From the IMG/VR virus record IMGVR_UViG_3300005528_000063, positions 1,378-65,377 of that record: 64,000 nt of DNA. One strand, written 5' to 3'. The notes beneath the pieces were generated by a model. The model was given only the letters and a program-made list of their open reading frames with translations. It was not told the DNA's origin and ran no database searches. Below are positions 1 through 63,108 of this stretch, piece by piece (within the stretch, counting starts at the first letter, position 1; every line of letters begins with the position of its first letter). Origin of the DNA: a virus (Duplodnaviria > Caudoviricetes). The position numbers and the translations under genes are program-made.

Positions 1-834
1 CTTGACCTGCTCGATGGCAGCGGTCAGGTCGGGCATCGGCTTGCCAAGCACCTGCTCGTACACACGAACCTTCTCAAGGAACCGGTCGGCCCGGTTCAAC
101 CGGATGCTGATGGAGCGGTCGGCCATTCCGCCTGCCGCCTCCATCACCTCGTCCATGATCTCGGTCAGCCCGGCCTGCACCTCCGCACCGAGCCGGTCAA
201 GCACGTGCATGACGGTGTCGGGGTCGGATGCGATCTCGACTTGATGCACCGTGAAGCGGGGACCATCGGCAGCGGGGCCAAGCACGATCCCGGCGAACGT
301 GCGGAAGTCCTCAAGCGTCTGGCCAAGCAGGAACCACACGCCGCCGTCGTCCTTGAGCGGCGTGGCCCGCCAGTGCCGGAGCATCTTGACCACCACCTGC
401 CCGACCACGCTGGACGGGAGGTAGTCGCGCATGGCAATCACCTTCTGGGAGAGGTGGTGCTCCAGGCTGGCTGTGTTCGTTGTGCCGTTCGTCTTGAGGA
501 CGGACACGCCCCAGTTGACGTCGATGTTGGCGGAGAACAGGAACTGGTAGTCGTTCTCGGCGGCGCCCGGAATGGTGCGTCGCGCCTCGAACGACGAGGG
601 ATCGTCAAGCTGCCGGCTGACGATGGGTTGCTTGCGCCGCTTGACGCAGAGCACATCGGCCACCCGCTTGACTGCCTCCCGCAGGACAGTGGTGCGGGCA
701 GGCATGGCCGGGACGAATCGCCCGCAGCCGACAGCTTCGGCCGCATCGTACAGCCTCGCCCGCTCCACCTTGCGGGTGTTGAGGATGCAGATGCCGCCGA
801 GTCCGGCGCCGATGGTGAGGGTTGTCGGTGTCAT
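1..834 (-). CDS. Conserved early phage protein, possibly DUF3150/DUF6744-like; 3' end cut by the window edge
   Basis: Not in the ORF track. Open frame from ATG 834 (RBS TAAGGAG): MTPTTLTIGAGLGGICILN...KDDGGVWFL...AAIEQVK. The GGVWF motif and linkage to AAA/vWA genes suggest the family. Confidence 0.75.
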   Translation of the reverse strand, partial: MTPTTLTIGAGLGGICILNTRKVERARLYDAAEAVGCGRFVPAMPARTTVLREAVKRVADVLCVKRRKQPIVSRQLDDPSSFEARRTIPGAAENDYQFLFSANIDVNWGVSVLKTNGTTNTASLEHHLSQKVIAMRDYLPSSVVGQVVVKMLRHWRATPLKDDGGVWFLLGQTLEDFRTFAGIVLGPAADGPRFTVHQVEIASDPDTVMHVLDRLGAEVQAGLTEIMDEVMEAAGGMADRSISIRLNRADRFLEKVRVYEQVLGKPMPDLTAAIEQVK

Positions 835-843
835 GGTCGCTCC

Positions 844-1020
844 TTAGTGGGTGATGAGAGACTTCTGCGCTGCCGTGAACCGTCGGTGCAGCACGGCGAA
901 CGCCGCCGCCTGCTCGTGTTCATCGAACTGCTCTCGATCCTCTGCCGATTCGTGCAGCGCAGTGAGGATGAGGTCGATCTCGTGTGGCGTGAGGGTCACG
1001 GTAGTAGTCGGGTATGGCAT
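844..1020 (-). CDS. Hypothetical protein (58 aa)
   Basis: AGGAGG RBS before ATG 1020; MPYPTTTVTLTPHEIDLIL. Confidence 0.7.
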   Translation of the reverse strand: MPYPTTTVTLTPHEIDLILTALHESAEDREQFDEHEQAAAFAVLHRRFTAAQKSLITH

Positions 1021-1037
1021 GGCCCGCCTCCTGTGTG

Positions 1038-1065
1038 AGTGTACATAATTACACGTAATGTTCAA
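1038..1065 (-). promoter_or_regulatory. Candidate sigma70-type promoter with overlapping dyad (possible operator)
   Basis: Minus strand TTGAAC-N16-TACACT in an AT-rich patch; dyad GTGTA-CATAAT-TACAC at 1039-1054. Confidence 0.45.
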
Positions 1066-1228
1066 TGGGTACGACGGCTGCGGACGGGTTGTCTAGCTCG
1101 CCGTTCTCGGCTGCGAGTCCCGTCCACACGACGATCTCGCCGCCCATTGACTCGTCCACGATTGCCTTTGGAAACGTGGCGACGATGAGTTCCATCAGCT
1201 CGGCCACCGTCTTGCTTCTGGTCTTCAT
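1049..1228 (-). CDS. Hypothetical protein (59 aa, below ORF-track cutoff)
   Basis: AAGGAGG RBS; MKTRSKTVAELMELIVATFPKAIVDESMGGEIVVWTG...HYV*. Confidence 0.6.
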   Translation of the reverse strand: MKTRSKTVAELMELIVATFPKAIVDESMGGEIVVWTGLAAENGELDNPSAAVVPIEHYV

Positions 1229-1463
1229 GCTCTTCCTCCTTGAGGGTCAGGTAGTTCTTCCAGTCGAACGCAATCGCGCGGGAGCCGGCGCGCACGACGA
1301 CTCCCTTCTTCTGCAACGAATGCACAACCACCGTCACGTACCCGGCGCTGGCCCAGCCGAAGTAGCTGGCGATCTCCCGGTAGGACGGCTGGCATCCAGT
1401 GAAGAGCACCGCTCTTGCGACAAGGTGCAGTAGCTCCCGCTCTCGTGATGTCAGGTCAGGCAT
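1062..1463 (-). CDS. LexA-type N-terminal winged-helix DNA-binding protein without the autopeptidase domain
   Basis: LTSRERELL...GCQPSYREIASYFGWAS...VHSLQKKGVV matches the LexA DNA-binding pattern (LTxRQ..PSxREIA..FG.xS....HL..L.KKG). Confidence 0.75.
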   Translation of the reverse strand: MPDLTSRERELLHLVARAVLFTGCQPSYREIASYFGWASAGYVTVVVHSLQKKGVVVRAGSRAIAFDWKNYLTLKEEEHEDQKQDGGRADGTHRRHVSKGNRGRVNGRRDRRVDGTRSRERRARQPVRSRRTH

Positions 1464-1683
1464 GCGGCTCCTCCTCGATGTACGCCGTGTCACCAGCGAG
1501 GCGAACGCTGCCTCTGCCAGCCATCACGACATGGGGTTGCTTGCTCCGCTCCCTGCTACGCACAGGGACAGAGCACACGATGTTGCGAACCAAGAGACAC
1601 GCACCCTTGTGGTGTACCGTCATGACCGGACGGCCCGCCTTCTGAGAGGCGGGCTTGTTGTAGTGAAAGAAGAACGCTGGCAT
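1456..1683 (-). CDS. Hypothetical phage protein
   Basis: MPAFFFHYNKPASQKAGRPVMTVH; tightly packed in the leftward operon. Confidence 0.7.
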   Translation of the reverse strand: MPAFFFHYNKPASQKAGRPVMTVHHKGACLLVRNIVCSVPVRSRERSKQPHVVMAGRGSVRLAGDTAYIEEEPHA

Positions 1684-1685
1684 GT

Positions 1686-2105
1686 TCACCCTCCGATGGT
1701 GATGGTGATGGAGTTCGCACGCTCCTCGATCGTGAAGCGCGGGCCGGAAGAAACAGTGATGCTCGCCTGCCGTGCCGCCGGCGGGGCAGTCACGACCTCG
1801 CCTGACAGAGGAGCCAGAAGCTTGGACTTCTTGCGCCGCTTCCGCAGCACGCCCGAAGTCCAGCCGTTGTGGCCGGCGGCGTTGTGCTTGTTGCCTGCGT
1901 TGCCGTGCTTGAGCTGAGGCAGCTCGATGCCTCGCTTCCGAAGCTGATTGAACCGCTGGGTCACGAGTCCATAAGGGATGCCCGTGAGTTCCGCAAACTC
2001 AGTGCGGGTCAGGCCGGCGGCGGCGGCCTCGTTCCAGCGGGCTACGAACTCGGCGGTCCAGTTGCCGAGCCGACGGGCCTTGCGGGTGGTGGTGGCGTGG
2101 GGCAT
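1686..2105 (-). CDS. Basic protein with a putative HTH
   Basis: AAGGAG RBS; TRTEFAELTGIPYGLVTQRFNQLRKRGIELP resembles an HTH. Confidence 0.6.
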   Translation of the reverse strand: MPHATTTRKARRLGNWTAEFVARWNEAAAAGLTRTEFAELTGIPYGLVTQRFNQLRKRGIELPQLKHGNAGNKHNAAGHNGWTSGVLRKRRKKSKLLAPLSGEVVTAPPAARQASITVSSGPRFTIEERANSITITIGG

Positions 2106-2121
2106 ATCACTCTCCTTGTGA

Positions 2122-2199
2122 TTAGGAACGGAGACTGCGGAACAGTTCCGCAATCAGATGAAGCACGATCAGAACTAGGCGCATCTCGTCGTCGGACAT
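2122..2199 (-). CDS. 25-aa small protein
   Basis: AAGGAGG-N5-ATG; MSDDEMRLVLIVLHLIAELFRSLRS*; fills the gap between neighbours. Confidence 0.55.
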   Translation of the reverse strand: MSDDEMRLVLIVLHLIAELFRSLRS

Positions 2200-2244
2200 G
2201 GGTGCCTCCTTGCGTGTGGCCGCAGCGTCCATGCTGCGGCATGG

Positions 2245-2457
2245 TCAGTCGCCTCGCACCATGCAGGCGACCTGTTCAGCGGACATGAACTCAGGCGGGA
2301 GCGGAGGGCGTGCGCCGTCCGCTCGCTCGACGGCCTCGAGCAGATCGAGCAGGCACTCGACCGGCACAAGAACCCTGCCTCCCTCGTAGTACCTTGCTCG
2401 TGCGAGCAGGACTTTGGAGCAGGTCAGGACGTCGGCCTCCGGTTCTTCGGGCCTCAT
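2245..2457 (-). CDS. Hypothetical protein
   Basis: AAGGAGG RBS; MRPEEPEADVL. Confidence 0.65.
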   Translation of the reverse strand: MRPEEPEADVLTCSKVLLARARYYEGGRVLVPVECLLDLLEAVERADGARPPLPPEFMSAEQVACMVRGD

Positions 2458-2486
2458 GGGGAACCTCCTTGTTGGTGGATGGAACA

Positions 2487-2500
2487 CAGACTCCGCAGCG
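2487..2500 (-). repeat. Intergenic 14-bp box, copy 1
   Basis: cagactccgcagcg on +; 5 nt after the stop of 2506..2931. Confidence 0.9.
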
Positions 2501-2505
2501 AGAAC

Positions 2506-2931
2506 TCACAGGTCTTCCCACTGCTTCTCGATGAGGTCGGCAAGCTGATCGAACGGCATGGCGCAGTCATCGTTCAGGTACGTGATGCCGTGATCGCCGG
2601 CATACGGTTCGTCGCTGTCAACGTGGATGCTGGGGTCAGCCTCACTAATCCCGGCCCACTGTCGCACTGAATGCGGCAGGTTGTCGGTGTGGTTGGCGTA
2701 CGCACCGACGTGCCTGTGGCTGCCGCACAGCCTGCTTGGCAGCGACTCCCACTGGTAGTGGTAATCGGAGCCGTCGGCGTTGTGCTCCTTGCGGTGCAGT
2801 TCACAGAGCACGCCCAAGCAGCAGTAGCTGAGCGAGCCGTCTTCGTTAGCAAGCCGAAGCTCGCCGGTGGTCTGCGCGTACTGGCCGGAGCGCAACGCGG
2901 CCACCCACTTCTCCATCACTTCGCGGTTCAT
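2506..2931 (-). CDS. Conserved phage protein (WVxALRSG...CCLGVLC type)
   Basis: MNREVMEKWVAALRSGQYAQTTGEL...YCCLGVLCEL...LNDD...FDQLADLIE; AGGAG RBS. Confidence 0.8.
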   Translation of the reverse strand: MNREVMEKWVAALRSGQYAQTTGELRLANEDGSLSYCCLGVLCELHRKEHNADGSDYHYQWESLPSRLCGSHRHVGAYANHTDNLPHSVRQWAGISEADPSIHVDSDEPYAGDHGITYLNDDCAMPFDQLADLIEKQWEDL

Positions 2932-2952
2932 CGAATCGTCTCCTGTCTTGGA

Positions 2953-2990
2953 AGGGAAAGCGGGGCCGCCGCACAGTGCGGCAGCCCCGC
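2953..2990 (-). terminator. Terminator-like GC hairpin
   Basis: GCGGGGCTGCCGCAC-T-GTGCGGCGGCCCCGC followed by TTTCCCTT. Confidence 0.55.
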
Positions 2991-2996
2991 AGAACA

Positions 2997-3010
2997 CAGA
3001 CTCCGCAGCG
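2997..3010 (-). repeat. Intergenic 14-bp box, copy 2
   Basis: cagactccgcagcg exact. Confidence 0.9.
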
Positions 3011-3022
3011 GGAAAGCTGCGA

Positions 3023-3889
3023 TCACATGAGGTCGTGCAGCGCCTCGATGCCGGCGTGCCCGTACATCTCGAACACATCGTGCAGCGTCTCCTTGCGGAA
3101 GCCGAACGCACGCAGGTCGTCGAACCGCATGTCGGTGTAGAACTGCGCCTCGTCCTCGAGCGTCTCGATCTCGTCCTCGTCGTAGCCCATCGGGTCACGC
3201 AGTAGGGTGGACTGCCGCTCGCACAGGAGCAGGTCGTCGTTGTCACGCTCGGTGTCGAGAGCCTGCTCCTTGCTGCTGCTGTACGTCAGCCGGCTAGTGG
3301 ACGGACCCATGTCACGCCAGTTGTAGTAGCCGATCGAGGTGTAGCGCGACGCCTTGTAGCCGTCGTTGCTGTACCAGTGACCGTCGCTGGCCCACGTGCC
3401 AGACTTGGCGTTCCAAATGCCGTGCTTGCCGTCCGCACGGAGGAAGCAGAACTTGCTGCCAGTGTGTGCCATCTCCTGCGTGTAGGTCATGTCTTGGTGC
3501 AGGAAGAAGTCAGGGTCACGACTGTGCATCGGCTTGAGAACCAGCTCGTTGAAGTGCCACGTGTCGGACATGGCCTGGTTCACGTTGCGTTCGATGCTGA
3601 CGATGCCGTTGTGGATCATGGCGAGGTCGCCACTCACCATGAACGGATGGCAGTTGAGCAAGTCGGTGTTGCCGTGCGTCGCCCACCGAAAGTGGATGAG
3701 TGCTTGGCAGTCGGAGTACGGCTCGAACGCAGCGCGGAACTCCGAGTAATCGCCGAGCCCATGCACGACAAGCAGATGGCCGTCGTGCAGGGCAGCGAAT
3801 CCCCACGAGTGCGGGTTGGAATCATGGCCGTTCTCGTAGGCAGTCCAGTCGGGCTTGGTTTCGGCGGGCTTGTAGATGGCGAGGCACAT
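3023..3889 (-). CDS. Class II (Ntn) glutamine amidotransferase
   Basis: N-terminal M-C (catalytic Cys1), HFRWATHG, NCHPF, HNG and SDT motifs. Confidence 0.9.
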   Translation of the reverse strand: MCLAIYKPAETKPDWTAYENGHDSNPHSWGFAALHDGHLLVVHGLGDYSEFRAAFEPYSDCQALIHFRWATHGNTDLLNCHPFMVSGDLAMIHNGIVSIERNVNQAMSDTWHFNELVLKPMHSRDPDFFLHQDMTYTQEMAHTGSKFCFLRADGKHGIWNAKSGTWASDGHWYSNDGYKASRYTSIGYYNWRDMGPSTSRLTYSSSKEQALDTERDNDDLLLCERQSTLLRDPMGYDEDEIETLEDEAQFYTDMRFDDLRAFGFRKETLHDVFEMYGHAGIEALHDLM

Positions 3890-3942
3890 AAGCAAATGCT
3901 CCGGGAAGGGATGATGGATGGATGAACACGACACGGGCAGGG

Positions 3943-5196
3943 CTAGGCGGCGGGCCTGTCCTTGCGTGGCTTGATCGACGGCTTGGCAACGGTCGCGTAC
4001 ATGCGGCCGAACGCCGAGTCGTGCGAGCGGAGCCACTGATCCAGCTCGATGTACTCGAAGCGTGCGTCAGTGGTGCCGAGCCACGTGAGGAACTCGGAAG
4101 GGCTGAGCTTGCGGCGATCCGCCGACGCCTGCCGGCAGAAGTCACGCACAGCCAGCACGTAGCACAGGTTCTTGAGGATGTTGCTCGTCCGTGCGGACGG
4201 GCGGAAGATGCGGAACTCCACCGTGCTACGCTTCACGTTGAGCGCCGAATACTTGTCGCTCTGGTCGGCCTTGTAGGGCAGGCCGGTCGAGACAAGCGAG
4301 CGGTGCGACGGGAAGGATGCGTAGTGCGTCTGCCGGCAGGCGATGTCGATGTGGAATCCGACGTTCGCCGGCAGGTGCATGAAGCACAGCATCTTGCCGA
4401 GCGTGAGCGGCGAGACACTGGATCGGGCGAGATGCACGTGCATCCCGCACTGCGTCCTCGACCACGCACTGACCGCACCGTTGCCGAGCCGCCCGTCGGG
4501 GAACGCAGCGGCGAGTACCTTGCGGTGCTCGTCGAGCGTCATCGGGACGGTGACGAACTCGAGGCCGGTGCGATCGGGCAGGCTGCCGTCACGCTTGGCA
4601 ATCGAGCCGTGACCGTACTCCGTACCGCCGATCAGCTCGCGGTACGCCCTGTTGTACGGGCCGCAGATCGCTGCGGCTCCGGTGTTGGCGTCCTCGTGGC
4701 CGATGCACTCGAACTCGAAGGCGACGGTCGGAGTCGTCCGCTTGTAGCGGTGCCGCTTCCAGCCCGTCTCCTCAAGCACGCACGTGTTGTATTCGAGCAG
4801 CTCGTCGCTGCCCTCCTCGCGGCACGAGCAGTCCTCGTCGTTGCAGTCACCGTTCTCGCAGCGAGAGCCGCCGTGACGGTGATACCCGTCCTCGTTGTAC
4901 CCGTCGCTGTCGTACCCGTCGCAGTCGAAGCCGTCCCGGTCGTAGCCCTCGCTGTCGTACCCCTCCTCGTTGTAGCCGGAGCGGTCGTAGCCATCGCAGT
5001 CGTAGCCGTATTCGTCAAAGCGGCCGCCGTCCCGCGTGCGTCCTTCGTCGTTGAACACCGTGCCGGTATCGCAGTGGATGCCGTGCTCGTCGAAGCCGCC
5101 CTCGTCGAAGGCGGTGCCGTTCAGGTGGACGCCGTCGCTGTCGAACCCGTACTCGTCACGCTCGACCTCGTTGGAGGCGGTGTTCTCGGTGGTCAT
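3943..5196 (-). CDS. Putative amidoligase (COOH-NH2 ligase, Amidoligase_2-like) with an acidic N-terminal repeat region
   Basis: FEFE, KRDGSL, GLEFVT, CGMHVH, KYSALN and TVEFRIF motifs; adjacent to the GATase. Confidence 0.85.
   Translation of the reverse strand: MTTENTASNEVERDEYGFDSDGVHLNGTAFDEGGFDEHGIHCDTGTVFNDEGRTRDGGRFDEYGYDCDGYDRSGYNEEGYDSEGYDRDGFDCDGYDSDGYNEDGYHRHGGSRCENGDCNDEDCSCREEGSDELLEYNTCVLEETGWKRHRYKRTTPTVAFEFECIGHEDANTGAAAICGPYNRAYRELIGGTEYGHGSIAKRDGSLPDRTGLEFVTVPMTLDEHRKVLAAAFPDGRLGNGAVSAWSRTQCGMHVHLARSSVSPLTLGKMLCFMHLPANVGFHIDIACRQTHYASFPSHRSLVSTGLPYKADQSDKYSALNVKRSTVEFRIFRPSARTSNILKNLCYVLAVRDFCRQASADRRKLSPSEFLTWLGTTDARFEYIELDQWLRSHDSAFGRMYATVAKPSIKPRKDRPAA
4880..5155 (-). 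repeat. Coding 5-aa (15-nt) G[YF][DN]xx tandem repeats
   Basis: YGYDCDGYDRSGYNEEGYDSEGYDRDGFDCDGYDSDGYNEDGY, with more degenerate units upstream. Confidence 0.85.
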
Positions 5197-5214
5197 GTCG
5201 AAACTCCTCAGGGG

Positions 5215-5248
5215 AAAAAGAAAAGGCCGCCCCACGTTGGGACGGCCT
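5215..5248 (-). terminator. Intrinsic terminator-like hairpin
   Basis: AGGCCGTCCCA-ACG-TGGGGCGGCCT followed by TTTCTTTTT. Confidence 0.7.
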
Positions 5249-5258
5249 GCCTCAGAAC

Positions 5259-5272
5259 CAGACTCCGCAGCG
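5259..5272 (-). repeat. Intergenic 14-bp box, copy 3
   Basis: Exact; 1 nt after a TGA. Confidence 0.9.
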
Positions 5273-5273
5273 G

Positions 5274-5552
5274 TCAATCGCGGCCGGCTTCGGTCGTGTC
5301 GGGGCAGGTGGCAAGCCGCATCGCCAGCTCTTCCTTGAACGTGTCCAGCGGAGTCGATGTAAAGCACGACACCTGCGTGAACGTCAGCGGGAAGGCTTTC
5401 TGAAACGCCCGAAGAAGCAGCAGGAAATCAACGGAAACCCCTTCTCCGAATCCGTTGTCGAAATAAACGCGACCGTCCTTGCTCAGTTCGAGTTCGCAAT
5501 ACTCATCTCCAACGTCTTCCGTCAGAACCAAATAGCCGCAGTCAACGTGCAT
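5274..5552 (-). CDS. Hypothetical protein, lower GC than neighbours
   Basis: MHVDCGYLVLTEDV; flanked by boxes; more A/T-ending codons. Confidence 0.65.
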   Translation of the reverse strand: MHVDCGYLVLTEDVGDEYCELELSKDGRVYFDNGFGEGVSVDFLLLLRAFQKAFPLTFTQVSCFTSTPLDTFKEELAMRLATCPDTTEAGRD

Positions 5553-5627
5553 GGCGTTGCCTTTCTGTGGCATGAAAACGCGAAGGGGCCAGCCGCCACC
5601 GTGACGACTGGCCCCTGCCGCAAGGAT

Positions 5628-5641
5628 CAGACTCCGCATCG
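5628..5641 (-). repeat. Intergenic 14-bp box, copy 4 (1 mismatch)
   Basis: cagactccgcatcg; followed on - by a long AGGGGCCAG...CTGGCCCCT hairpin. Confidence 0.85.
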
Positions 5642-5645
5642 GGGA

Positions 5646-5882
5646 TCACCGCAGGTTGCGGCGACGGCCCACCATCGGCGTGAGCAGCCGGTCGATCTCG
5701 CGGTCGATCTCGACGGTGTTGTCGGCGGATTCCTCCGCACGCTCACGGGTACGGAAGGGGCCGACGGGCTCGGCTGCACTCCGCAGGTCGAGGAAGTAGA
5801 AGCCGCCCGTGCCAGGAAACACGACGGCTTGGGCCTTGTTCTCGCTGTTGCGAACGACGGACAGGGTGGGATCGAGAGGCAT
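5646..5882 (-). CDS. Hypothetical protein
   Basis: TAAGGAG RBS; contains a GPFRTRERAEE motif common in small phage proteins. Confidence 0.7.
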   Translation of the reverse strand: MPLDPTLSVVRNSENKAQAVVFPGTGGFYFLDLRSAAEPVGPFRTRERAEESADNTVEIDREIDRLLTPMVGRRRNLR

Positions 5883-5906
5883 GGTGATGCTCCTTATGGA
5901 ACGTGG

Positions 5907-5940
5907 AAACAAAAACGCCCACCGCGAAGTGCGATGGGCG
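5907..5940 (-). terminator. Intrinsic terminator-like hairpin
   Basis: CGCCCATCGC-ACTTC-GCGGTGGGCG followed by TTTTTGTTT. Confidence 0.7.
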
Positions 5941-5990
5941 AACCTGCGAGTGCAGGATTGGGGGCTGGCTGGCAGCACAGCCCCGTATCC

Positions 5991-6004
5991 CAGACTCCGC
6001 AGCG
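5991..6004 (-). repeat. Intergenic 14-bp box, copy 5
   Basis: Exact. Confidence 0.9.
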
Positions 6005-6007
6005 GGA

Positions 6008-6397
6008 TCACTCGCACGCCAGCTCGATGGCATCGACGGCATCGGCGTGCTTCAGCCCCTTGATGGCGGCCTTGAGCAGGTTGCCGTCATCCACGCGGAG
6101 CGAGCCGGCGAAGGCACCGTTCACGTAGAGCAACACGTACTCGCGGCCCTGCTTCGTGGTGGAACCCTTGCGGAACTCGACGCCGCCGCACTCGACGCCC
6201 TCGACCTCCTCCGCCTCGACCTTCGGCTTGGCCTTCGCCTTCGCCGGAGCGGCTTTCTTGCCCTTCTGCGACTCACGCCACTTGCGGAGAGCCTCAGGGT
6301 TGCCCTTCTTCTTGCCCTTCGCCTTGCTCTTGGCAGGGGCGGCGGCAGCGTCAGCGATCAGCGAGAACAGCATCTTCTTCATCATGTCAGCGTTCAT
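6008..6397 (-). CDS. Lys/Ala-rich basic protein, possibly DNA-binding
   Basis: AAAAPAKSKAKGKKKG...KKAAPAKAKAKPK; GAGGAG RBS. Confidence 0.75.
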   Translation of the reverse strand: MNADMMKKMLFSLIADAAAAPAKSKAKGKKKGNPEALRKWRESQKGKKAAPAKAKAKPKVEAEEVEGVECGGVEFRKGSTTKQGREYVLLYVNGAFAGSLRVDDGNLLKAAIKGLKHADAVDAIELACE

Positions 6398-6485
6398 AGG
6401 AAACTCCTCAGTGAAAGAACCAATCGAACCTTCCCGCGAAGTGCGGGTGGAGGCGGGGTGACGAAGTGCCAGCCCCGCTACCATC

Positions 6486-6499
6486 CAGACTCCGCAGCG
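6486..6499 (-). repeat. Intergenic 14-bp box, copy 6
   Basis: Exact. Confidence 0.9.
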
Positions 6500-6504
6500 G
6501 CAAA

Positions 6505-6684
6505 TCACGCCACCAACAGCACGGGATACCGACTCTCGACCACGACCTCGCCGGACGGGTCGTAGAGCACGAACAGACGCACGCCATCGGCGTTGTCGTT
6601 GATGTACCAGCGGGCCTTGCGTTCATTGGGGAACACGTAGGAACGACGCTCGCCGGACGACGCGATGGAAACGACGCAGAACAT
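6505..6684 (-). CDS. Hypothetical protein (59 aa)
   Basis: CAGGAG RBS; MFCVVSIASSGERRSY. Confidence 0.65.
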   Translation of the reverse strand: MFCVVSIASSGERRSYVFPNERKARWYINDNADGVRLFVLYDPSGEVVVESRYPVLLVA

Positions 6685-6742
6685 GGGACGCTCCTGTGGA
6701 ACGTGGGAGGGACGCGGCAGCCGAACGTCGGCCACCGAAAGA

Positions 6743-6756
6743 CAGACTCCGCAGCG
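6743..6756 (-). repeat. Intergenic 14-bp box, copy 7
   Basis: Exact. Confidence 0.9.
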
Positions 6757-6761
6757 GCGAA

Positions 6762-6959
6762 TCACGCGGCCGGAGGGACGAACGCCACCTTGCTCGTGTC
6801 AGCGAGAGCCGACTCGATCGAGTGGTGGAAGGAGATGCTCTCGTACTCGTAGTCGAGGCTCACGAACTCCGACGCAGTGATGAAGGAGTTGAATGGCCCC
6901 GCTACGACGTTGGGTTGATCTGCGGGGGTGTGAACGACGATCCAGATTGGCTCACGCAT
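6762..6959 (-). CDS. Hypothetical protein, first gene of the leftward arm
   Basis: GGAGGA RBS; MREPIWIVVH...VAGPFNS. Confidence 0.65.
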   Translation of the reverse strand: MREPIWIVVHTPADQPNVVAGPFNSFITASEFVSLDYEYESISFHHSIESALADTSKVAFVPPAA

Positions 6960-7019
6960 GGTGCAGTCCTCCGGTCGGTCACAACGACGGTCACTCGCCG
7001 TCGTCGTGCCGACACAACA

Positions 7020-7033
7020 CAGACTCCGCAGCG
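7020..7033 (-). repeat. Intergenic 14-bp box, copy 8
   Basis: Exact; followed by hairpin CACGACGACGG...CCGTCGTTGTG. Confidence 0.9.
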
Positions 7034-7303
7034 GGGATGGACGCCGTTTCTTGTGGCGTTTCGGGGGTCGGTTCCGCCTCTCCGTCGAGAGCGTGAAGCG
7101 GAAGTCCTTGTGCCTGCACGGGTTGCGGGGGGCGTAAGAAAGGAAGGGCGGAGCCCCCCCAGCCGCCGCACGTATCAGTTACGTTCCCCTCCTGGATTTT
7201 TTCCCAGTTTCATTGCGGCCCCTCTTGTGCGGGGGTAGCTGTTCGCCCGTCCACCGCTATACTGGGCGCCTGTATAGTCCCCCCTTGTACAGAAAGGGTT
7301 CCG

Positions 7304-7678
7304 ATGATCGAGGCAACCGTGACGGGCAACGTGGGTCGTGCCCCAGAGATGAAGACGACCCGCAGTGGCAAGCAGATGGCTGGGTTCTCGGTGGCGTCCA
7401 CCGAGAAGAAGGACGCCCCGACCACGTGGGTGGAGGTCGTGTGCTTTGACGAGCAGGCCGACATGGTCTGCCAGAGCCTCCAGAAGGGCGACAGAGTCGT
7501 CGTGACCGGCAGGATGGCTCTGGAGACGTTCCAGAAGAAAGACGGCTCTACGGGCTTCTCATTGCGTCTAATGGCAAATGAGGTGGGCCGTAGCCTCCGG
7601 TGGCCCCGCCGGTCGGCTGGCGCCATGCCGGAGGTGTCGGAGGTCGAGGAAGAGGCTGCCGAGCCGATCCCGTTCTGA
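7304..7678 (+). CDS. ssb: Single-stranded DNA-binding protein
   Basis: TGNVGRAPEMKTT...FSVA...TTWVEVVCF...LQKGDRVVVTGR; acidic tail ending IPF. Confidence 0.92.
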   Translation: MIEATVTGNVGRAPEMKTTRSGKQMAGFSVASTEKKDAPTTWVEVVCFDEQADMVCQSLQKGDRVVVTGRMALETFQKKDGSTGFSLRLMANEVGRSLRWPRRSAGAMPEVSEVEEEAAEPIPF

Positions 7679-7745
7679 ACACGTTGCCGGTCGCCGGGCG
7701 TGGCAGGGACGCTGCGCTCCGGCTGACTGGCTGAAGGGGTGACGC

Positions 7746-21855: not shown

Positions 21856-24800
21856 ATGGCGCTCGTCAGGATTCAGGTTCGTCGCGATCCGGCCGCCACA
21901 TGGGCGGCAGCCAACCCGGTCCTCGCAGCTGGCGAGCCGGGCCTCGAGACGGATACTGGCAAGATCAAGTACGGCGACGGCGTTCGCGCCTGGAACTCGC
22001 TGCCGTACTCGTCGGGCGTCAGCTTGGGCAGCAGCGTTCCGCCGGCGGCAGGGACGGCTGCGGCTGGGACGAGCCAGGACGCTGCGCGAGCGGATCACTC
22101 GCATGCCCTGCCGACGAACCTTCAGGCCCAGACGATCCAGGCTTCCGGCAGTGCCTCTGTCGGCGGCACGCTGACCGTCACCGGGCAGCTTATTGGTGGC
22201 ACGCACCGGCACAACGCTGCCGACATCAACGACCTTACGGCCGCCGTTTTCTCTCGCATCGTCTCGTCCATCAAGGCCGGAGCGAACATCCAGGCGGAGG
22301 TCGACAGTGCAGCGCAGACGATCACGCTCAGCAGCACGTCCGCAGGCTCTGCACCACTGGTAATCACGCAGAATCCGATCGACTACGCAGCGACGAGCGG
22401 AACGGCCACCTTCTCTGCCACAGCCATCGGAGGCCGAGACACGCTTACCTACGAGTGGCAGGTATCCACAGACGGCGGCAACACGTGGGCCGCAGTTCCT
22501 GGCGCCAGCGGCTCTACACTCGTGCTTTCTGGCGTCACCGGCGCGATGAGCGGCAATCGCTATCGCCTTCAAGTGTCGTCGGGCACTGAGGTGGTGGTTT
22601 CAGCGCATGCCGTCCTGACTGCCGGCGGAGTGACCATTACCGCGCAGCCCCCCGACTCGACGGTCGACGTTGGCGGCACTGTCCGGTTGGCGGTGGCCGC
22701 ATCGGCAGGGTCGACGGCCATCTCCTACCAGTGGCAGCAGTACAACGCGACATCCGACTCGTGGGCCGACGTCCCAGAGGCCGACCTGCCCGTGTATTCG
22801 TTCATTGCCGCCGCCGCTACAGGCTCCTCTGGTAATCAGTATCGCGCCGTCGTGAGGGCGGCGGGCCAGACGGTCGAGTCTCGCACTGCCGTCGTTGTGG
22901 TTCGCCCGGCGGCCGTATCGTTTCCGGTGCAGCCAGAGAGCACCACAGACGTTGCCGGCGCCGCCACGTTTGCCGCCGACGTTGTGGGTGGCACTGATCC
23001 GCTGGTACTGCGGTGGCAGAGGCTCGGTGGCGGCTCGTCTGCGTGGAGCAGCTCCAGTGTGTTTGAGGACATACCGGACGGGGCGTCTGGCGTGAGCGGC
23101 CAGGCCGCAGAGACGTTGTTGCTGACAAGCCAGACTGCGTCGCAGCATCTGCGCCGCTATCGCCTAAAGGTGACGGACGCAGACTCCCGCGTCGCCTACA
23201 GCGCAGAGGCCACGCTTCGCACGCTGTCTTTGGAGATAACCGCACACCCGGAGGACGTTTCAGCAACTTCTGGCGACACGCTGTCGGCATCCGCCTTCTC
23301 CGTGACAGCATCGGCCGACGGGGGCGTCACGTACCAGTGGCAGAAGTCAGTCAATAACGGCACGACTTGGTCGAACATCGCCGGAGCCACGTCTGCGACA
23401 TACGGCGGATTTGCCGTCACGTTCCTCGACGACGGCGCGTTGTTTCGGTGCGCCGTGACTGGCGACGGCCAGACGCTGAACAGCGAGTCGGCCTCGCTGG
23501 CTGTAGCCGCGCCTGCGCTTACGATCACCACGCAACCCCAGAACGTCACCGCCACAGGATCGACCGCCACCTTCTCCTTCGGCCACTCCGGCGGCCCGTC
23601 AGTTACGCCTCAGGTGTACTGGGAGTCGCGAACGGCCTCTACCGGGTGGGTGCGCATCCCTGGAGCCACCACCACAACGCTCGCCGTTTCCGGCATCACG
23701 CCAGAAAACAACGGAACCGCATATCGTGGCGTCGTGCAGCGAGGCTCCGCCACCGCGTTCACCGACGCGGTCACGCTGACCGCTCCAGGCGCAATCATTT
23801 TCTTGCAGCCGCAAGACGCGACGGCAGCGTCCGGTAACGCCAGCTTCAGCGTGGACTTTACGTCCGTCGCTTGCTCTGCGCCGACAATTACGTGGCAGCT
23901 GCGCACCTCGCCAAGCGGCTCATGGTCTGCCGTTGCCGGCGCCGGGAGCGTCAAGACGCTTGAGATCGGAGGGCTGACGACATCGTTCAGCGGCTACCAA
24001 TACCGCGCACTCGTGGCGTGCGGCGGAAGAGAGGTTGCGTCGAATCCAGCCACGCTCACGGTCCCAGTGCCTCCGGTCGTTATCACAACTCAGCCAAGCG
24101 ACGCCACTGCCGCTCTGGCGCAGGCGACGTTTACGTTTGCCTTCTCCGGCGGCGACGGCTCTGCGCCCAGCATCGTGTGGGAGCGGGCGCTTCCAGGCGG
24201 CGCGTTTGCCGTCGTGCCCGGCGCCACTACGAACACGCTGGCGGTCAACGGCATAACGACATCCATGTCTGGCGCACAGTATCGTGCGACCGTGACTATC
24301 GGCTCTCAGTCCGCCACGACCCGCTCCGCAGTGCTGACCGTCGGCGGCGCCACGATCACGCTTCACCCCGTAGACGCCATTGCGGTCGATAGGGCCGCGA
24401 CGTTCACCTTCGACTTCTCGTCGTCGTGCTCGTCGCCCTCAATTCAGTGGGAGAGCAAGCCGCCGACGTTCACCGTGTGGTCGCCGGTGCTCGGGGCCAC
24501 TTCGCGCACCCTGTCTCTTACTAACCTGCTGCCGTCCGATTCCAACCGCCAATATCGTGCCGCCGTTGAGTGCGGCGGATCGGTTTCGTACTCCAGCGCT
24601 GCCACGCTGACCGTTCCGTCCTACGAGTTTTTTATCACCCAGCCCGGCTCTCAGAGCGTCAATGCCGGCGACACCGTGACGTTCTCGTACCAGGGCATGT
24701 TCAATGTCCCGGATTACCAAGCGCGCTGGCAGATGCGGCGGATCGGCGGCGGCTGGTCTAATGTGGCTCGCGGTCAGTCCTACACCTTCAAAGCCAACGC

Positions 24801-26838
24801 TCGCGCGCACCACAACACCGAGTGGCGAGTGCAGGTTGCCACTCCTGGCGGCGTGCTGTTTAGTGCTGTAGCGAGGCTGACCGTTGGTAAGCTGACTTCG
24901 ACCAAGCCAGTGGCGCTCGCCGGAACATCCGATCTCGTCGGCATCGCCTATGCGAAGGGTGCGTTCGTGGCGTTAGCATCTGACCAGACGGCCATCATTC
25001 GCCGATCCACAGACGGTGGCGACACGTGGCAGACGCACTGGCTTCCCGAGTCTCGCTACTGGGACGGCGTTACTGCCAGCCAGAACGGAGCGCTGTTCGC
25101 GTACGGCAGCGGCGAGAGCGGAACCGTCAACGCCGACTTTTCTCCACAAACCAACCCCAACACGCCGTTCAACTGGACGCCGACGTGGAGGGACGATCCC
25201 GACTCCCGCGTTGGCCCGAAGCGGACGGCCACTGTGGCGCGGAGCCTGGACGGCGGTAGGACGTGGGCAAAGCTCCAGCTTCCATTCTTCGCAGGCAACT
25301 GCCTGCGGATGTGGGGAACGAATTACAACAACGCGGTCGTGGCGTTCTTTTTCTCCGAGAGCCTGACGGGACGGCGCAGCCGAGAGCACTGGTGGTTTGG
25401 GTCGCGCGCCGGAGCCGGCGGTGGGCGGCGTCGCAACGGACGGCTGAAGATGGCCGTGACGCTCAATGATGGCGCCTCGTGGAGCGTCTTTGATTGGCCG
25501 CTGCCCCCGCAGGGTGGCGCCGTGTATCCACCTCCGCGCGCCCTTGTTCCAAAGCAGGTCGCCATCAGCCCGTCTGGGGTCATGGTGGTCGCCACTCGCG
25601 TGACAGACTTTGGCGCAGACAAGGAATACCCTGGCCTGCTGTTGACGAGAAACATAGCGGCAAGCGGCTGGGGCACGCCCACGACCGCATCGACGGCCAC
25701 TATTAGGATTGCCACTAGTAACGGCAACTCAGCGCGCACCATCGCGACTGGCCTCCTTCGCACCGGCGGCGTGGTGGGCGACCTGACATACAGCCGCTCT
25801 CCGTCGCTGGCGGAAGGATTCAATGTGGGCCGCGCAATCACCAACCACGACGCCAATTCGGTCGAGTGGGTTCCCGGCGCCGGATTCATTGCTGCGCATG
25901 ACAGGTATCGCGTGGCAATGATTTCTCAGGACGGAAACCTGTGGGGGGCCGTGCCGACCGAGCGCATCTTAGGCGAAGTGCCGCTGCACGTCGTGGGCAA
26001 CGCGCTGTACGGCATCGACACGACGCTTCCCAATTACGAATGGGTGACGACAGCCACGTCTGAGTCGTATCCCGACTTCGTCAACATGAATCTTGGCATC
26101 ACGACCATCACGGACACGGTGAACTGCTGGGCGCACAGCCCGTCCGAGATCATGCTTCTTGAGACTGGTGGGTCGATTACGTGGATTCCTCGCGACGACG
26201 CTCCGAGCGCCAATCCCGGCGAGCTGGCCGACCCTGACTCGCCAGACGACCTCACCGTCGAATCTCGCTCACAGTCCGCAGTCCTCTCTTGGACGCCGTC
26301 GCCGAGCGCGACCGCAAACCCACCGCAGCGATACGACGTGGAGTACACATCCGACGATGGCAGGACGTGGACGACGCACACCGCTCCGGCCAGCACAGCT
26401 ACTTCGCGCACGGTGTCGGGCTTGACGCGCGGCACGACGTACTACTTCAGGGTGGCGGCAGTGTTTTCGTCTGGGACAAAGGCGTACTCCGCGTGGAGCC
26501 CACCAGTCACGCCTGCCGCCTCGCCGCCTGGAGCGCCGGCGTGGGTTCGCGCCATGTGGAGCCAAGTGGCGCTGCCGGGCAATCCGCGAAGGATACTTGT
26601 CTCGTGGGGAGCGCCTACGGACGACGGAGGCGCTCCCATCACCTCGTACATCGTCCAGACGTCGGACGGCTTGGCCACCCTCGCCAACCATATTAACTTG
26701 ACGCGGCTCACGGCGTTTATCGACCCCGCGCTTCTGCGCAGCCGTCCCGGCGGAGCCAACGCGGCGACGTTCCGCGTGCTCGCGGTCAATTCGGCAGGCA
26801 TTAGCGCTGCAAGCCCCACGTCCGGTGTAGCCAGCTAG
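21856..26838 (+). CDS. Large fibre/adhesin: Mtd_N-like N-terminus, about 9-10 Ig-like repeats, BNR/Asp-box region, two FN3 domains
   Basis: WAAANPVLAAGEPGLETDTGKIKYGDG; repeated ITxQP..ATF..YQW..YR units; STDGGDTW and SLDGGRTW Asp-boxes; GLTRGTTYYFRVAA. Confidence 0.85.
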   Translation: MALVRIQVRRDPAATWAAANPVLAAGEPGLETDTGKIKYGDGVRAWNSLPYSSGVSLGSSVPPAAGTAAAGTSQDAARADHSHALPTNLQAQTIQASGSASVGGTLTVTGQLIGGTHRHNAADINDLTAAVFSRIVSSIKAGANIQAEVDSAAQTITLSSTSAGSAPLVITQNPIDYAATSGTATFSATAIGGRDTLTYEWQVSTDGGNTWAAVPGASGSTLVLSGVTGAMSGNRYRLQVSSGTEVVVSAHAVLTAGGVTITAQPPDSTVDVGGTVRLAVAASAGSTAISYQWQQYNATSDSWADVPEADLPVYSFIAAAATGSSGNQYRAVVRAAGQTVESRTAVVVVRPAAVSFPVQPESTTDVAGAATFAADVVGGTDPLVLRWQRLGGGSSAWSSSSVFEDIPDGASGVSGQAAETLLLTSQTASQHLRRYRLKVTDADSRVAYSAEATLRTLSLEITAHPEDVSATSGDTLSASAFSVTASADGGVTYQWQKSVNNGTTWSNIAGATSATYGGFAVTFLDDGALFRCAVTGDGQTLNSESASLAVAAPALTITTQPQNVTATGSTATFSFGHSGGPSVTPQVYWESRTASTGWVRIPGATTTTLAVSGITPENNGTAYRGVVQRGSATAFTDAVTLTAPGAIIFLQPQDATAASGNASFSVDFTSVACSAPTITWQLRTSPSGSWSAVAGAGSVKTLEIGGLTTSFSGYQYRALVACGGREVASNPATLTVPVPPVVITTQPSDATAALAQATFTFAFSGGDGSAPSIVWERALPGGAFAVVPGATTNTLAVNGITTSMSGAQYRATVTIGSQSATTRSAVLTVGGATITLHPVDAIAVDRAATFTFDFSSSCSSPSIQWESKPPTFTVWSPVLGATSRTLSLTNLLPSDSNRQYRAAVECGGSVSYSSAATLTVPSYEFFITQPGSQSVNAGDTVTFSYQGMFNVPDYQARWQMRRIGGGWSNVARGQSYTFKANARAHHNTEWRVQVATPGGVLFSAVARLTVGKLTSTKPVALAGTSDLVGIAYAKGAFVALASDQTAIIRRSTDGGDTWQTHWLPESRYWDGVTASQNGALFAYGSGESGTVNADFSPQTNPNTPFNWTPTWRDDPDSRVGPKRTATVARSLDGGRTWAKLQLPFFAGNCLRMWGTNYNNAVVAFFFSESLTGRRSREHWWFGSRAGAGGGRRRNGRLKMAVTLNDGASWSVFDWPLPPQGGAVYPPPRALVPKQVAISPSGVMVVATRVTDFGADKEYPGLLLTRNIAASGWGTPTTASTATIRIATSNGNSARTIATGLLRTGGVVGDLTYSRSPSLAEGFNVGRAITNHDANSVEWVPGAGFIAAHDRYRVAMISQDGNLWGAVPTERILGEVPLHVVGNALYGIDTTLPNYEWVTTATSESYPDFVNMNLGITTITDTVNCWAHSPSEIMLLETGGSITWIPRDDAPSANPGELADPDSPDDLTVESRSQSAVLSWTPSPSATANPPQRYDVEYTSDDGRTWTTHTAPASTATSRTVSGLTRGTTYYFRVAAVFSSGTKAYSAWSPPVTPAASPPGAPAWVRAMWSQVALPGNPRRILVSWGAPTDDGGAPITSYIVQTSDGLATLANHINLTRLTAFIDPALLRSRPGGANAATFRVLAVNSAGISAASPTSGVAS

Positions 26839-44100: not shown

Positions 44101-44596
44101 AGACCTTTTTACCAATAGGCCGATTGGAGAGTCCACGTCCACGCTCGACGCCATTGCGCGCTCCGTGACAGGCAACCCCAATGCGGACGTACCTGCGCTT
44201 GCTGAGAAGCTCGTCGAAATCCTTCCGTTCGCAGGTCGCCCGCTGTATGCGCTGCGCTCGTTGCTCGACAACAGGGACGGGCAGCCGATTGCGTCTCGCG
44301 GCATCCGGACTGTATTCAATAGCACGACCGGAATGGCATTGCGTGATGCCACGAAGCGAGACGTCCTCTCCGACGCAGTGCGCCAGATCGAGGAGAGCAT
44401 CGACCCGTACACCCGCGAGTTTACGCAGACCTACATCCCCGAAGAACTTATGCCGATGGTTCCGCAGTGGGCGCAGGAACGGCAAGCCGTGTCGCGTGCG
44501 CTTGTCCGCGAGAAGCGAGAGGACGACAAGCCCCAGAAGACCTCTCGCAAGAAGAAGCGCACGTCGGACACTGGCTTCCCTCAGCTATTCGAGTAG
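41192..44596 (+). CDS. Large DNA-transfer / ejection protein
   Basis: 1134 aa; GLATDIVTDPL near the N-terminus; LSQLEKTVLRRIFPWYSF...GKDLFTNRPI near the C-terminus, typical of podovirus internal proteins. Confidence 0.75.
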   Translation: MDLFDQPPSRRRPAGYIPLFDEAALADQPASQIDVTPEMRDSVLREIGAVTGGTLSRIGDALSAPGDYFRGLLTGKAGERVTGREMLRDAGLISQQDNWGNFAAGLATDIVTDPLSMVTGPTKAVTAAGQALKKAGLADALPAAMTRKAISTGAVRSGDIPGVAKRTLKALEDSGRTISTMDPAVVGRPLYGTRTSMRAGTLDDAIRYAGDDAAQKAAEDALLGVLGPDELARLRNEPLAKTVGFGLPLSQPSITADIFGKGFGDQYANVLDTIGQAYRWSPVGRGMAAAFDQRVWGKLDAEEQLTNIANFEARQKAGGIATAAHTYHLAKLYKENPEVFSEDGNRALGRYLEGSAARTADDVAYVESRPALKEYADWWVNNRQDYLAESRRMGLSAAELTDKYGIDYLPRRAEAVLEMEARRNRKLGEVLTTFTGDMLRRTDAMQLPGGRDTIIDLSRDANVAGAKRALTTDEDAAQYLLNKLSPLVQPGQPPLELDQMKRLARVLNRLPDEVTQKSPLFGQHPTEMIGSYMRGRNESMATAGVMYDSLASFAKDGAYDTIEGGRHISMQEALNRLGVKSYDDDAVGAARQMRERIAGLRGVDPDQIKLSEISVPEEHINRLMRARDAFETGEASQSLLNWLDHYTQAWKGAILTWPARATRDLYSGAISNWLEGALDSDAVLATRALMQEGPQSQRFLRTLQGIPRYAGDDGLEQFYADIAGNGLVGAQNGFEIGGSVVGRGALGQLPGTTPITFGTITGELTKGWGWNNFRQWRSNLRPLAETKNPILRAGEQLNSLSDGINRISGFLALMKQGYDPSAAAKAMKRAHVDPSSLSQLEKTVLRRIFPWYSFQSRMFREVLRQLVEQPGGRYAQLIRTTESLQDEGDDAYIPSGLRSRFAFPLPEEWGGVPAPGTQRYLTGLQVPGFTELGMIETPGTVAGTVTGTGRQIGMQLHPALRTGVELMAGKDLFTNRPIGESTSTLDAIARSVTGNPNADVPALAEKLVEILPFAGRPLYALRSLLDNRDGQPIASRGIRTVFNSTTGMALRDATKRDVLSDAVRQIEESIDPYTREFTQTYIPEELMPMVPQWAQERQAVSRALVREKREDDKPQKTSRKKKRTSDTGFPQLFE

Positions 44597-52181: not shown

Positions 52182-52540
52182 TGATGAAGGTATGCGAAGA
52201 GAAGGCGGTTCGGTATCAGAGCGGTGCGGTGCGGTCGAGCGACGCAGAGGCGACGCGCTACGACCTCATCACTCCGATTGGACTGGCGGCTGTAGCTGCC
52301 GCTTGCGCGGAGGGTGCCGCTAAGTACGGCGACTACAACTGGGAGAAGGGCATGCCGGCGAACGACATGCTGAATCACGCACTGCGCCATATCTATATGT
52401 TCCTCTCCGGAAACCGGGACGAGGATCATCTCGGACACGCAGCGTGGAACGTCATGGCGGCGATCCACTCCCTCGAGGTTTGGCCGGAACTGAACGAGGG
52501 AACACTTCGCAGCGGCTATTGTGAGGCACCGCGACACTAA
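52178..52540 (+). CDS. dATP/dGTP diphosphohydrolase-domain protein (DUF5664-like)
   Basis: RYDLI...EGAAKYGDYNWEKGM...HALRH...EDHLGHAAWN. Confidence 0.85.
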   Translation: MMMKVCEEKAVRYQSGAVRSSDAEATRYDLITPIGLAAVAAACAEGAAKYGDYNWEKGMPANDMLNHALRHIYMFLSGNRDEDHLGHAAWNVMAAIHSLEVWPELNEGTLRSGYCEAPRH

Positions 52541-63088: not shown

Positions 63089-63108
63089 GAAAAGCTGCGG
63101 GAAAACTG

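Follow-up and report, generated by a model that had tools for sequence, protein, structure and literature searches.

The DNA considered here is a stretch of 64,000 nucleotides (hereafter the window, to which all positions refer unless stated otherwise) from a virus of the class Caudoviricetes, comprising bases 1378-65377 of the 65,377-bp virus record IMGVR_UViG_3300005528_000063, and the element in question is a 15-nt box that recurs behind the stop codons of its leftward arm. This arm contains small open reading frames (ORFs) without family match, an amidoligase-like gene (with distant tblastn matches only), a weak GATase_6 match, two AAA_5 (MoxR-like) ATPases, a DUF2201 VWA/metallopeptidase protein and a resolvase-type serine recombinase. 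The rightward arm contains SSB, terminase, portal, major head and tail proteins and then PD-(D/E)XK nuclease, ERF, helicase and nucleotide-metabolism genes, and an extracytoplasmic function (ECF)-like sigma factor is encoded at 58223-58744. It is noted that isolated phage relatives were found neither by DNA nor by portal protein, with only distant amidoligase-like matches. An earlier annotation made from the letters and their ORFs alone (the sequence-only reading) had listed a sigma factor, serine and tyrosine recombinases and a "LexA-like" gene. The sigma factor is confirmed as ECF-like and the serine recombinase by its family match; the tyrosine recombinase is only a sub-threshold match in this genome (11.3 bits) and is above the cut-off in two relatives; and an S24 LexA-type domain was not found in the "LexA-like" gene, which belongs instead to a small winged helix-turn-helix (winged-HTH) family.

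Box and hairpins in the leftward arm

The box, CCGCTGCGGAGTCTG, occurs nine times within the window, in every case on the minus strand (Table 1). The sequence-only reading had placed nine copies of the 14-mer CGCTGCGGAGTCTG here, and all of them are found, seven exact and two with one mismatch; the true conserved unit is 15 nt long, consisting of the 14-mer with a C added at its 5' end. When up to two mismatches are allowed, the 14-mer has 12 matches in the window versus 1.9 expected (standard deviation 1.4, largest value 6), with none of 100 shuffles reaching 12. The three matches with two mismatches (12125 on the minus strand, 17031 on the minus strand and 30845 on the plus strand) all lie in the rightward arm and are at the chance level, so that the claimed co-orientation of the copies and their absence from the rightward arm also stand. 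Moreover, the box is the sole strongly repeated 11-mer in the window, and all its sites fall within some 10 kb of the leftward arm. A tenth, degenerate copy, CCGCTGCGGAGTCCT, lies beyond the window edge, at positions 940-954 of the record, and the leftward arm would carry ten copies if the record is circularly permuted.

The strand reading and a simple gene call agree on the layout, which is stop codon, box, hairpins and ribosome-binding site (RBS). From the stop codon to the 15-mer the gap is 0-19 nt for the eight internal copies, while the copy at 7020 heads the arm, as had been described. GC-rich hairpins followed by an RBS lie downstream of eight of the nine copies, with that at 2487 as the exception, and three hairpins are terminator-like, those at 2960-2990, 5224-5248 and 5916-5940. 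Two further observations made by eye are reproduced as well: the cassette at 5274-5552 is lower in GC than its neighbours, which have GC contents of 0.60-0.67 overall and of 0.75-0.90 at third codon positions (GC3), and no box stands between the genes of the amidoligase-like/GATase pair.

Table 1. Features of the window and hammerheads of related loci (types A and B as defined in the text; L-numbers denote loci of related phages and precede positions within them; the 14-mer column gives the match to CGCTGCGGAGTCTG at the first position of the row)
Feature	Position	Strand	14-mer	Remarks
Head-of-arm box CCGCTGCGGAGTCTG	7020-7034	-	exact	no same-strand gene upstream; orthologous head copy in type A and type B relatives
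Conserved 5'-leader hairpin	6974-7015	-		begins 4 nt after the head box, extends into the RBS of the first gene (6967-6973)
Box	6743-6757	-	exact	4 nt past the stop of a 65-aa gene
Box, then two hairpins	6486-6500	-	exact	4 nt past the stop of a 59-aa gene
Box, then three hairpins, the last (5916-5940) terminator-like	5991-6005	-	exact	2 nt past the stop of the gene for a 129-aa Lys/Ala-rich protein
Box variant CCGATGCGGAGTCTG, then H1 hairpin	5628-5642	-	one mismatch	3 nt past a stop
Low-GC single-gene cassette between two boxes	5274-5552	-		GC 0.559, GC3 0.667
Box, then terminator-like hairpin 5224-5248 (family H2)	5259-5273	-	exact	directly abuts the stop codon
Box with upstream complementary arm TCGCAG (3017-3022), extended stem-loop form	2997-3011	-	exact	followed by terminator-like hairpin 2960-2990
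Box variant TCGCTGCGGAGTCTG	2487-2501	-	exact	no hairpin, RBS immediately next
Hairpin GCCGCAGC-AUGGAC-GCUGCGGC without AGUCUG tail	2219-2240	-		read from the sequence; possibly a decayed box module
Small winged-HTH protein with basic tail	1686-2105	-		family in most loci of both box types
Box variant CCGCTGCGGCGTCTG, extended form, 5' arm CCGCAG at 63095-63100	63075-63089	-	one mismatch	upstream of an AAA_5 ATPase gene
Hammerhead	L162:4938-4998
Hammerhead	L157:4499-4559
Hammerhead	L160:238-298
Hammerheads	L161:4270-4330 and 4528-4588			258 nt apart
Hammerheads	L164:2336-2396 and 2714-2778			pair also in L165

Conservation of the box and its stem-loop form in relatives

Viral contigs were scanned with the box and the whole records were then searched. 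Co-oriented arrays are present in four related records, with forward/reverse copies of 9/0, 11/1, 8/0 and 13/0, and two distant box matches in a fifth record were taken as chance. Alignment of the ATPase brought in 35 viral loci and two contigs of metagenome-assembled genomes (MAGs), one of them titled Pirellulales bacterium. The loci with ATPase identity of at least 73% have 0-14 copies of the box each, nearly all forward, the low counts falling in loci with little upstream sequence; the box in this form is called type A. Over 35 loci (the own arm of the window and L132-L165) there are 225 forward versus 2 reverse copies, with 187 unique forward contexts. A 16-mer scan gives about 20 viral contigs with several copies, and a scan for the second form described below (type B) gives about 7-8. 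The sequence-only reading had said that a lack of orientation bias or an absence from relatives would speak against it; what is found is a motif kept in the relatives and strictly co-oriented. The box is thus a real, selected, lineage-wide element. Note also that the relatives L170 and L171 are on contigs binned into two MAGs, one being that titled Pirellulales bacterium, which hints at a Planctomycetes host but may be due to co-binning alone.

The information content is high across the 15 nt only, with the flanks at background (at most 0.7 bit). Within the box, positions 4 and 6 vary freely (CTG, ATG, CTC, ATC), even inside one genome, and the remainder is invariant, so that the recognised core is CCG-N-T-N-CGGAGTCTG. 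In 90 of 177 modules the box starts 3-5 nt past the stop codon, another group of modules clusters at 16-19 nt, and the next start codon follows 27-120 nt downstream of the box, mostly at 50-120 nt. The box is always upstream of the hairpins and the RBS, and one copy stands 4 nt ahead of a start codon. All of the 123 unique type A untranslated regions (UTRs) fold into one to four hairpins, the first paired base being 0-12 nt downstream of the box, and 26 of them are terminator-like by the criterion used here. The view that conserved sequence stands beside conserved structure is upheld for the sequence and only in part for the structure, the hairpins being heterogeneous, terminator-like only in those 26 of 123, and lacking in some modules. 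Some hairpins are themselves conserved: the 5'-leader hairpin behind the head box has 13 predicted pairs, 6 with compensatory changes, in 14 loci of both box types, and the H2 terminator before the amidoligase-like gene shows covariation, with the box always preceding it.

The relatives with ATPase identities of 53-61% have no box; at the same positions, including the arm head and the slot before the ATPase gene, they have a stem-loop of the form CCCYUG-WUUU-CAGGGG (type B). This stem-loop is followed by two pyrimidines and then by a tail, which is GGCGAGUUCU, GGCGAKUAC or CUGGAGAACA by subgroup and is often trailed by GUAG and a variable hairpin. MAFFT places the type A box opposite the 3' arm and tail of the type B element, both standing before the orthologous leader hairpin, and on this alignment the two forms are homologous. 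A minority of the type A copies are extended by an upstream arm, which pairs with box positions 4-9 into a 6-bp stem, in 17 unique contexts of CCGCAG/CUGCGG, one compensatory CCGCAU/AUGCGG and two U.G variants, and these extended copies account for the second stop-to-box peak at 16-19 nt. The 15-mer may accordingly be read, from these comparisons, as a stem-loop-plus-tail element that has been reduced by the loss of its 5' arm. At the variable pair of the type B stem, the unique contexts comprise 12 U.G, 9 C:G, 2 U:A and no C.A; with U.G common and C.A absent, this pattern points to a hairpin of the sense-strand RNA.

Type II hammerhead ribozymes are present between stop codon and RBS in the leftward arm of relatives with type B (Table 1). 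That of L162 has an Rfam score of 30 bits, which is below the gathering score of 37 (E = 0.0047), and more were found by the core motif in L157, L160, L161, L164 and L165. With RNAalifold they give three stems of 17 pairs in total, 9 of them compensatory, and the cores are invariant. The hammerhead is the sole element of the gap in four of five distinct slots and precedes a type B box in the remaining one. Perreault et al. (2011, PMC3088659) proposed that hammerheads which flank single phage genes divide long transcripts into mRNAs the length of a gene. The present box resembles these hammerheads of phage and prophage operons in the slot that it occupies in polycistronic transcripts, from stop codon through the element to RBS, and in the variable genes that it flanks (PMC3088659). 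It differs from them in that its modules have no hammerhead core or Rfam match and are in some cases free of hairpins, and that 15 nt is too small for self-cleavage. At E of 5 or below, Rfam gave no ribozyme family in bases 1-7400 of the window, nor anything else for the arm, and in L162 (3700-10100) the separate hammerhead is the only Rfam ribozyme match.

The box as a proposed mRNA signal and the alternatives

Four possibilities had been raised by the sequence-only reading, namely a nut-like site, an RNA-processing site, a stoperator-like site and a recombination site. Among these RNA processing fits best, with the stem-loop-plus-tail ancestor on the sense strand and the hammerheads in the same slots of relatives. 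We therefore tentatively take the box to be an intercistronic mRNA signal, most likely a processing site read by a factor. In this model, the box would be a cis-acting signal that is read on the leftward-operon mRNA and marks the cistron boundaries. It would descend from the stem-loop-plus-tail that is still intact in the distant relatives (CCCCUG-UUUU-CAGGGG-YY-GGCGAKU), most copies in the group of the present phage having lost the 5' arm, with the loop part, the 3' arm and the tail as the remainder. A sequence-specific trans-acting factor, most likely an endoribonuclease encoded by the phage or the host, would recognise the box and cut the polycistronic early transcript just past each stop codon and in the leader, and each downstream mRNA would then carry a stable hairpin of its own at its start and the RBS behind it. 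That RNA rather than DNA is recognised, that the recognition leads to a cut and that the agent is a protein are inferences here. Weak candidates for the reader of the box are the winged-HTH family and the Lys/Ala-rich 129-aa protein; as a box-binding factor the winged-HTH protein is a candidate only. A Cas6-like identity of the 129-aa protein was considered and rejected, the Cas6e-family match being 17.8 bits, below the cut-off and within a Lys/Ala-rich linker.

Several observations weigh against this model. Of 159 type A contexts, 125 have no complementary arm and about 20 have a clear arm of the CCGCAG type. With the 5' arm absent from most type A contexts, the structure is not required and the sequence is what persists, which keeps a reading at the level of DNA alive; a contiguous, invariant, asymmetric 15-mer would equally suit a monomeric DNA-binding protein. 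The covariation of the type B stem is not significant, since most pairs hardly vary (121-191 of 500 shuffles reach the observed values), and the type B copies with U.G are related rather than mutually independent. The scans of the window proteins gave no nuclease candidate for the box, and apart from the winged-HTH family, which is typically DNA-binding, no conserved nucleic-acid-binding family was seen in the arm. Hammerheads were not found in type A loci and occur only with the other box type, so that their argument for processing at the box is one by analogy. Moreover, a few exact copies lie within ORFs, in a single reading frame (PAAES), which is awkward for a cleavage site; because this frame is shared with the commonest stop-to-box spacing, these copies may stem from loss of a stop codon.

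Repeated co-oriented intergenic motifs of phage early regions are mostly promoters, and the box may be considered as a phage-specific promoter or start signal, at which a phage factor such as the ECF-like sigma redirects the host RNA polymerase or a phage polymerase starts. Each cassette would then get its own transcript starting at the downstream hairpin. The order of box, 5' hairpin and RBS is a natural one for a promoter, the head copy has no gene upstream, and the hairpin would come at the very 5' end of the transcript with its first paired base 0-12 nt past the box; in addition the phage encodes a sigma factor, and no sigma-70-like promoter is seen in the arm (0 sites in bases 1-7700, versus 0.7 expected). 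We nevertheless consider this explanation rather unlikely. The box is a single contiguous GC-rich block of 15 nt with no conserved element at the -35 distance, the flanks having at most 0.7 bit, while a sigma factor with regions 2 and 4 requires two elements. The absence of sigma-70-like sites from the arm counts on this side as well. No phage RNA polymerase was detected: the DxDxD motif is absent from all 11 ORFs checked, and a T7-like polymerase domain was not found, which is a weak blank since the PF00940 control was silent everywhere. A promoter would also have a terminator-like hairpin directly downstream in 26 of 123 unique UTRs and would in one case stand 4 nt before a start codon, and the U.G pairs of the ancestral stem-loop make sense on the RNA strand only. 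A DNA site of another kind, to which a phage protein such as the winged-HTH one binds and blocks transcription of the arm in an orientation-dependent manner as at a stoperator, seems less probable still. It would account for an asymmetric site of about 15 bp in many copies and one orientation, placed in short intergenic spaces by stop codons; the free positions 4 and 6 in an otherwise invariant box fit protein contacts, copies within ORFs would be harmless, a conserved winged-HTH family is present, and the tyrosine recombinase homologues of relatives may point to a temperate life style. It would not account for sites that lie in about 10 kb of one arm instead of genome-wide, nor for the type B form, which is a stem-loop with a sense-strand U.G bias, and a roadblock needs no strict placement upstream of hairpins and RBS; this genome has no clear integrase, and no prophage context was seen.

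A nut-like RNA site, on which a factor loads onto the polymerase or binds the RNA and suppresses termination at the following hairpins, is in our estimate about as improbable as the stoperator-like one. The 9-13 copies are at odds with processive systems, which need one site per operon; a terminator-like hairpin is missing from 97 of 123 modules, and hairpins of any kind from some; and the box does not overlap the hairpins, unlike the binding sites of non-processive antiterminators. In its favour, the box is a sense-strand RNA element in the leader, directly upstream of hairpins that are terminator-like in three of nine window modules as well as in 26 of 123 unique UTRs, the terminator on the amidoligase side is conserved with covariation behind a box in every case, and Arg-rich stretches are present in some winged-HTH members.

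Exchange of cassettes at the box bears on the last of the four possibilities, in which the box would be the crossover site of a serine or tyrosine-like recombinase that excises and inserts single-gene cassettes in the manner of an integron. The cassette content between boxes does differ greatly among relatives, and a resolvase-type recombinase is present in most loci of both box types. Among module pairs with only the right flank in common, 65 of 109 lose identity within 0-2 nt of the box, as do 16 of 37 among those with only the left flank in common. Positive as it is, this breakpoint result carries little weight: nothing but the box is conserved at these places, and a breakpoint at its edge is forced when the neighbouring genes differ. 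The hairpins, on the other hand, do not travel in one way. The H2 terminator goes with its downstream amidoligase-like gene in 14 of 14 cases, against five upstream families, and the hairpin before the ATPase goes likewise with its downstream gene in 14 of 14, while the H1 hairpin keeps to the gene upstream of it in 14 of 16 cases, facing eight downstream families, and the head hairpin H4 precedes eight different first-gene families. Since junctions are found also at the RBS and some hairpins move with the upstream gene, exchange appears to have occurred at any shared sequence rather than by an integron-like site-specific recombination. Alignments moreover gave no inverse-core partner beyond the hairpins and no dyad centred on 2 bp with the length of a resolvase site. 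The box thus marks many mosaic junctions between genomes as a side effect, and of the earlier idea the frequent ending of homology exactly at box edges survives, with recombination as its function being very improbable.

The box may also be compared with the clustered regularly interspaced short palindromic repeats (CRISPR) of a host, which it would mimic so as to soak up Cas6/Cascade or to borrow Cas6 for cutting phage mRNA. The type B form is indeed shaped like a class 1 repeat, with a stem of 6 bp that closes a 4-nt loop, together with a short flank and a tail of some 10 nt, and solitary-repeat RNA anti-CRISPRs have been described in phages (PMC10651486). In 401 genomes of the order of the relative-bearing MAG (one candidate host order) no array was found; 57 of these genomes have only 1-2 matches, and only one (G006) has 3, all on its phage-like contig. 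The named MAG has box matches on the phage-like contig and one elsewhere, and no array is present in the two MAGs. The box is therefore not a host-wide repeat in the genomes searched, and with the Cas6e-family match below cut-off in a Lys/Ala-rich stretch we assign to mimicry only the slightest probability. A readthrough signal (distances and frames vary), a Shine-Dalgarno (SD) or standby site (the tails of type B do not resemble an SD) and DNA uptake or restriction sites (no support) were dropped by eye.

The box belongs to the repeated regulatory boxes of phage early regions and is a member of no described family tested. The early RNase III sites of T7 are long irregular hairpins cut by a host enzyme. 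They are like the box as repeated sites in the leader and between early cistrons that yield processed mRNAs with terminal hairpins, and differ in their conserved element, which for the box is a single-stranded 15-mer or a 6-bp stem with a tail, adjoined by hairpins unrelated to each other. Compared with lambda-type nut sites, the box has 9-13 copies per arm and its full form is a hairpin followed by a tail. From integron attC sites it is distinguished by one conserved block per module, by hairpins linked to the upstream gene or the head, and by no adjacent IntI being seen.

The promoter early stem-loop (PeSL) elements of T4-type phages are likewise composite intergenic motifs between an upstream stop codon and a downstream SD/ATG, which flank early genes that are small, variable and for the most part orphan (PMC2839356), and differences between genomes map to these motifs acting as linkers (PMC2839356; also PMC4122927). 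The box, too, flanks variable ORFan cassettes, with genome differences at the motif, and for PeSLs as well an exchange at shared sequence has been proposed (PMC2839356). A PeSL consists of a sigma-70 promoter and a stem-loop terminator conserved over about 100 bp (PMC2839356), whereas the box is a GC-rich 15-mer without promoter hexamers (no sigma-70-like promoter with -35, -10 and UP was found in bases 1-7700), and its hairpins are downstream, variable and mostly not terminators. The start-associated sequences (SAS) of Cluster K and their extended form (ESAS) are asymmetric, 13-15 nt long, in one orientation, in the non-structural region and next to varied gene families, with a function given as not known, and some of them have an inverted repeat ahead of them (PMC3203893), as have the extended box copies. 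They lie 3-7 bp before the start codon and contain an SD sequence (PMC3203893), while the box has neither start-codon proximity nor an SD, lying 3-5 nt after the stop and 27-120 nt before the next start with hairpins between. Cluster A stoperators are asymmetric sites of similar length with many copies in short intergenic spaces and with an orientation tied to transcription (PMC9283540, PMC6550527, PMC3203893), in which the box agrees with its 225 versus 2 copies. Those stoperators are genome-wide and bound as DNA by the immunity repressor (PMC9283540, PMC6550527); the box is in one arm rather than across both, appears to have a stem-loop ancestor of RNA type and has in the winged-HTH family its only candidate repressor.

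Repeated boxes such as PeSLs, SAS, stoperators and RNase III sites are rare handles on how the fast-evolving host-takeover genes of phages are organised and exchanged. What is new here is the stop-codon-associated form, the series from a stem-loop-plus-tail to a bare 15-mer, and the hammerheads in the slots of sister phages, which together connect the processing of phage operons by ribozymes with that by factors in a concrete way that can be tested. It is conceivable, and in our judgement doubtful, that we are dealing with a phage lineage, possibly on Planctomycetes, with a dedicated mRNA segmentation, in which an endoribonuclease acts behind almost all early genes at a 15-nt stop-associated site that is functionally interchangeable with the hammerheads of sister phages and serves as a portable cassette joint. 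As a practical marker, a scan with the 15-mer picks out an otherwise unannotated lineage and delimits its accessory-gene cassettes.

Other observations on the arm and the genome

In the divergent control region between the arms there is a conserved block, GGGAAAAAATCCAGGAGGGGAACGTAAC, at 7170-7205 (minus strand), which is present also in L132-L148, L157 and L164 and thus with both box types. Type A relatives have a GAAAC-N14-GTCC(A/G)T motif directly next to the head box, and this motif stands before no other copy. An ECF-type promoter was considered and rejected, there being no conserved -35 partner and no repeated pattern in scans of GAAC/CGTC spacing.

The arms of type B relatives contain another conserved structured intergenic element (GGCUCGCGAGGCCGCCCAGUGACUUCGG...; L162:4174-4263, L157:3862-3976 and L164:3366-3453), for which the search with L162 gave no Rfam match at E of 5 or below. 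A 106-aa protein encoded at L162:7024-7341, of a family in eight of nine type B loci, looks GIY-YIG-like by eye, and at L157:1757-1836 (minus strand) there is a match to the Rfam CyVA-1 RNA (RF02965) with 52.4 bits versus a gathering score of 41.4.

The two AAA_5 ATPase paralogues lie at 61894-62997 (minus strand) and, outside the window, at 3-863 of the record, with DUF6744-like fragments between them, and each is preceded by an extended box and a near-identical hairpin; the pair looks like a tandem partial duplication. The conserved DUF6744-like protein gave no informative PDB match. Upstream of the ECF-like sigma gene, an AT-richer gap has three close-set TAGGTAG repeats (57980-58030, plus strand), which may be an operator or an iteron-like site. 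At 51666-52540 (plus strand) a YfbR-like HD nucleotidase (weak match) adjoins a protein with a dATP/dGTP diphosphohydrolase N-terminal domain (PF18909, E = 3e-20), which may be a sign that the phage manipulates the nucleotide pool or modifies bases; an adenylosuccinate-synthetase-like gene was not found in the record.

Finally, we note two large proteins encoded on the plus strand. The first, of 1660 aa in the structural region (21856-26838), has Mtd_N, Ig_3, BNR and fn3 domains and is a possible receptor-binding protein. The other (41192-44596) is 1134 aa long and has a family in neither Pfam nor PHROG. Next to it in the atlas are hypothetical proteins of viruses, and LPD38, a large polyvalent protein domain, occurs in one of the neighbouring clusters.

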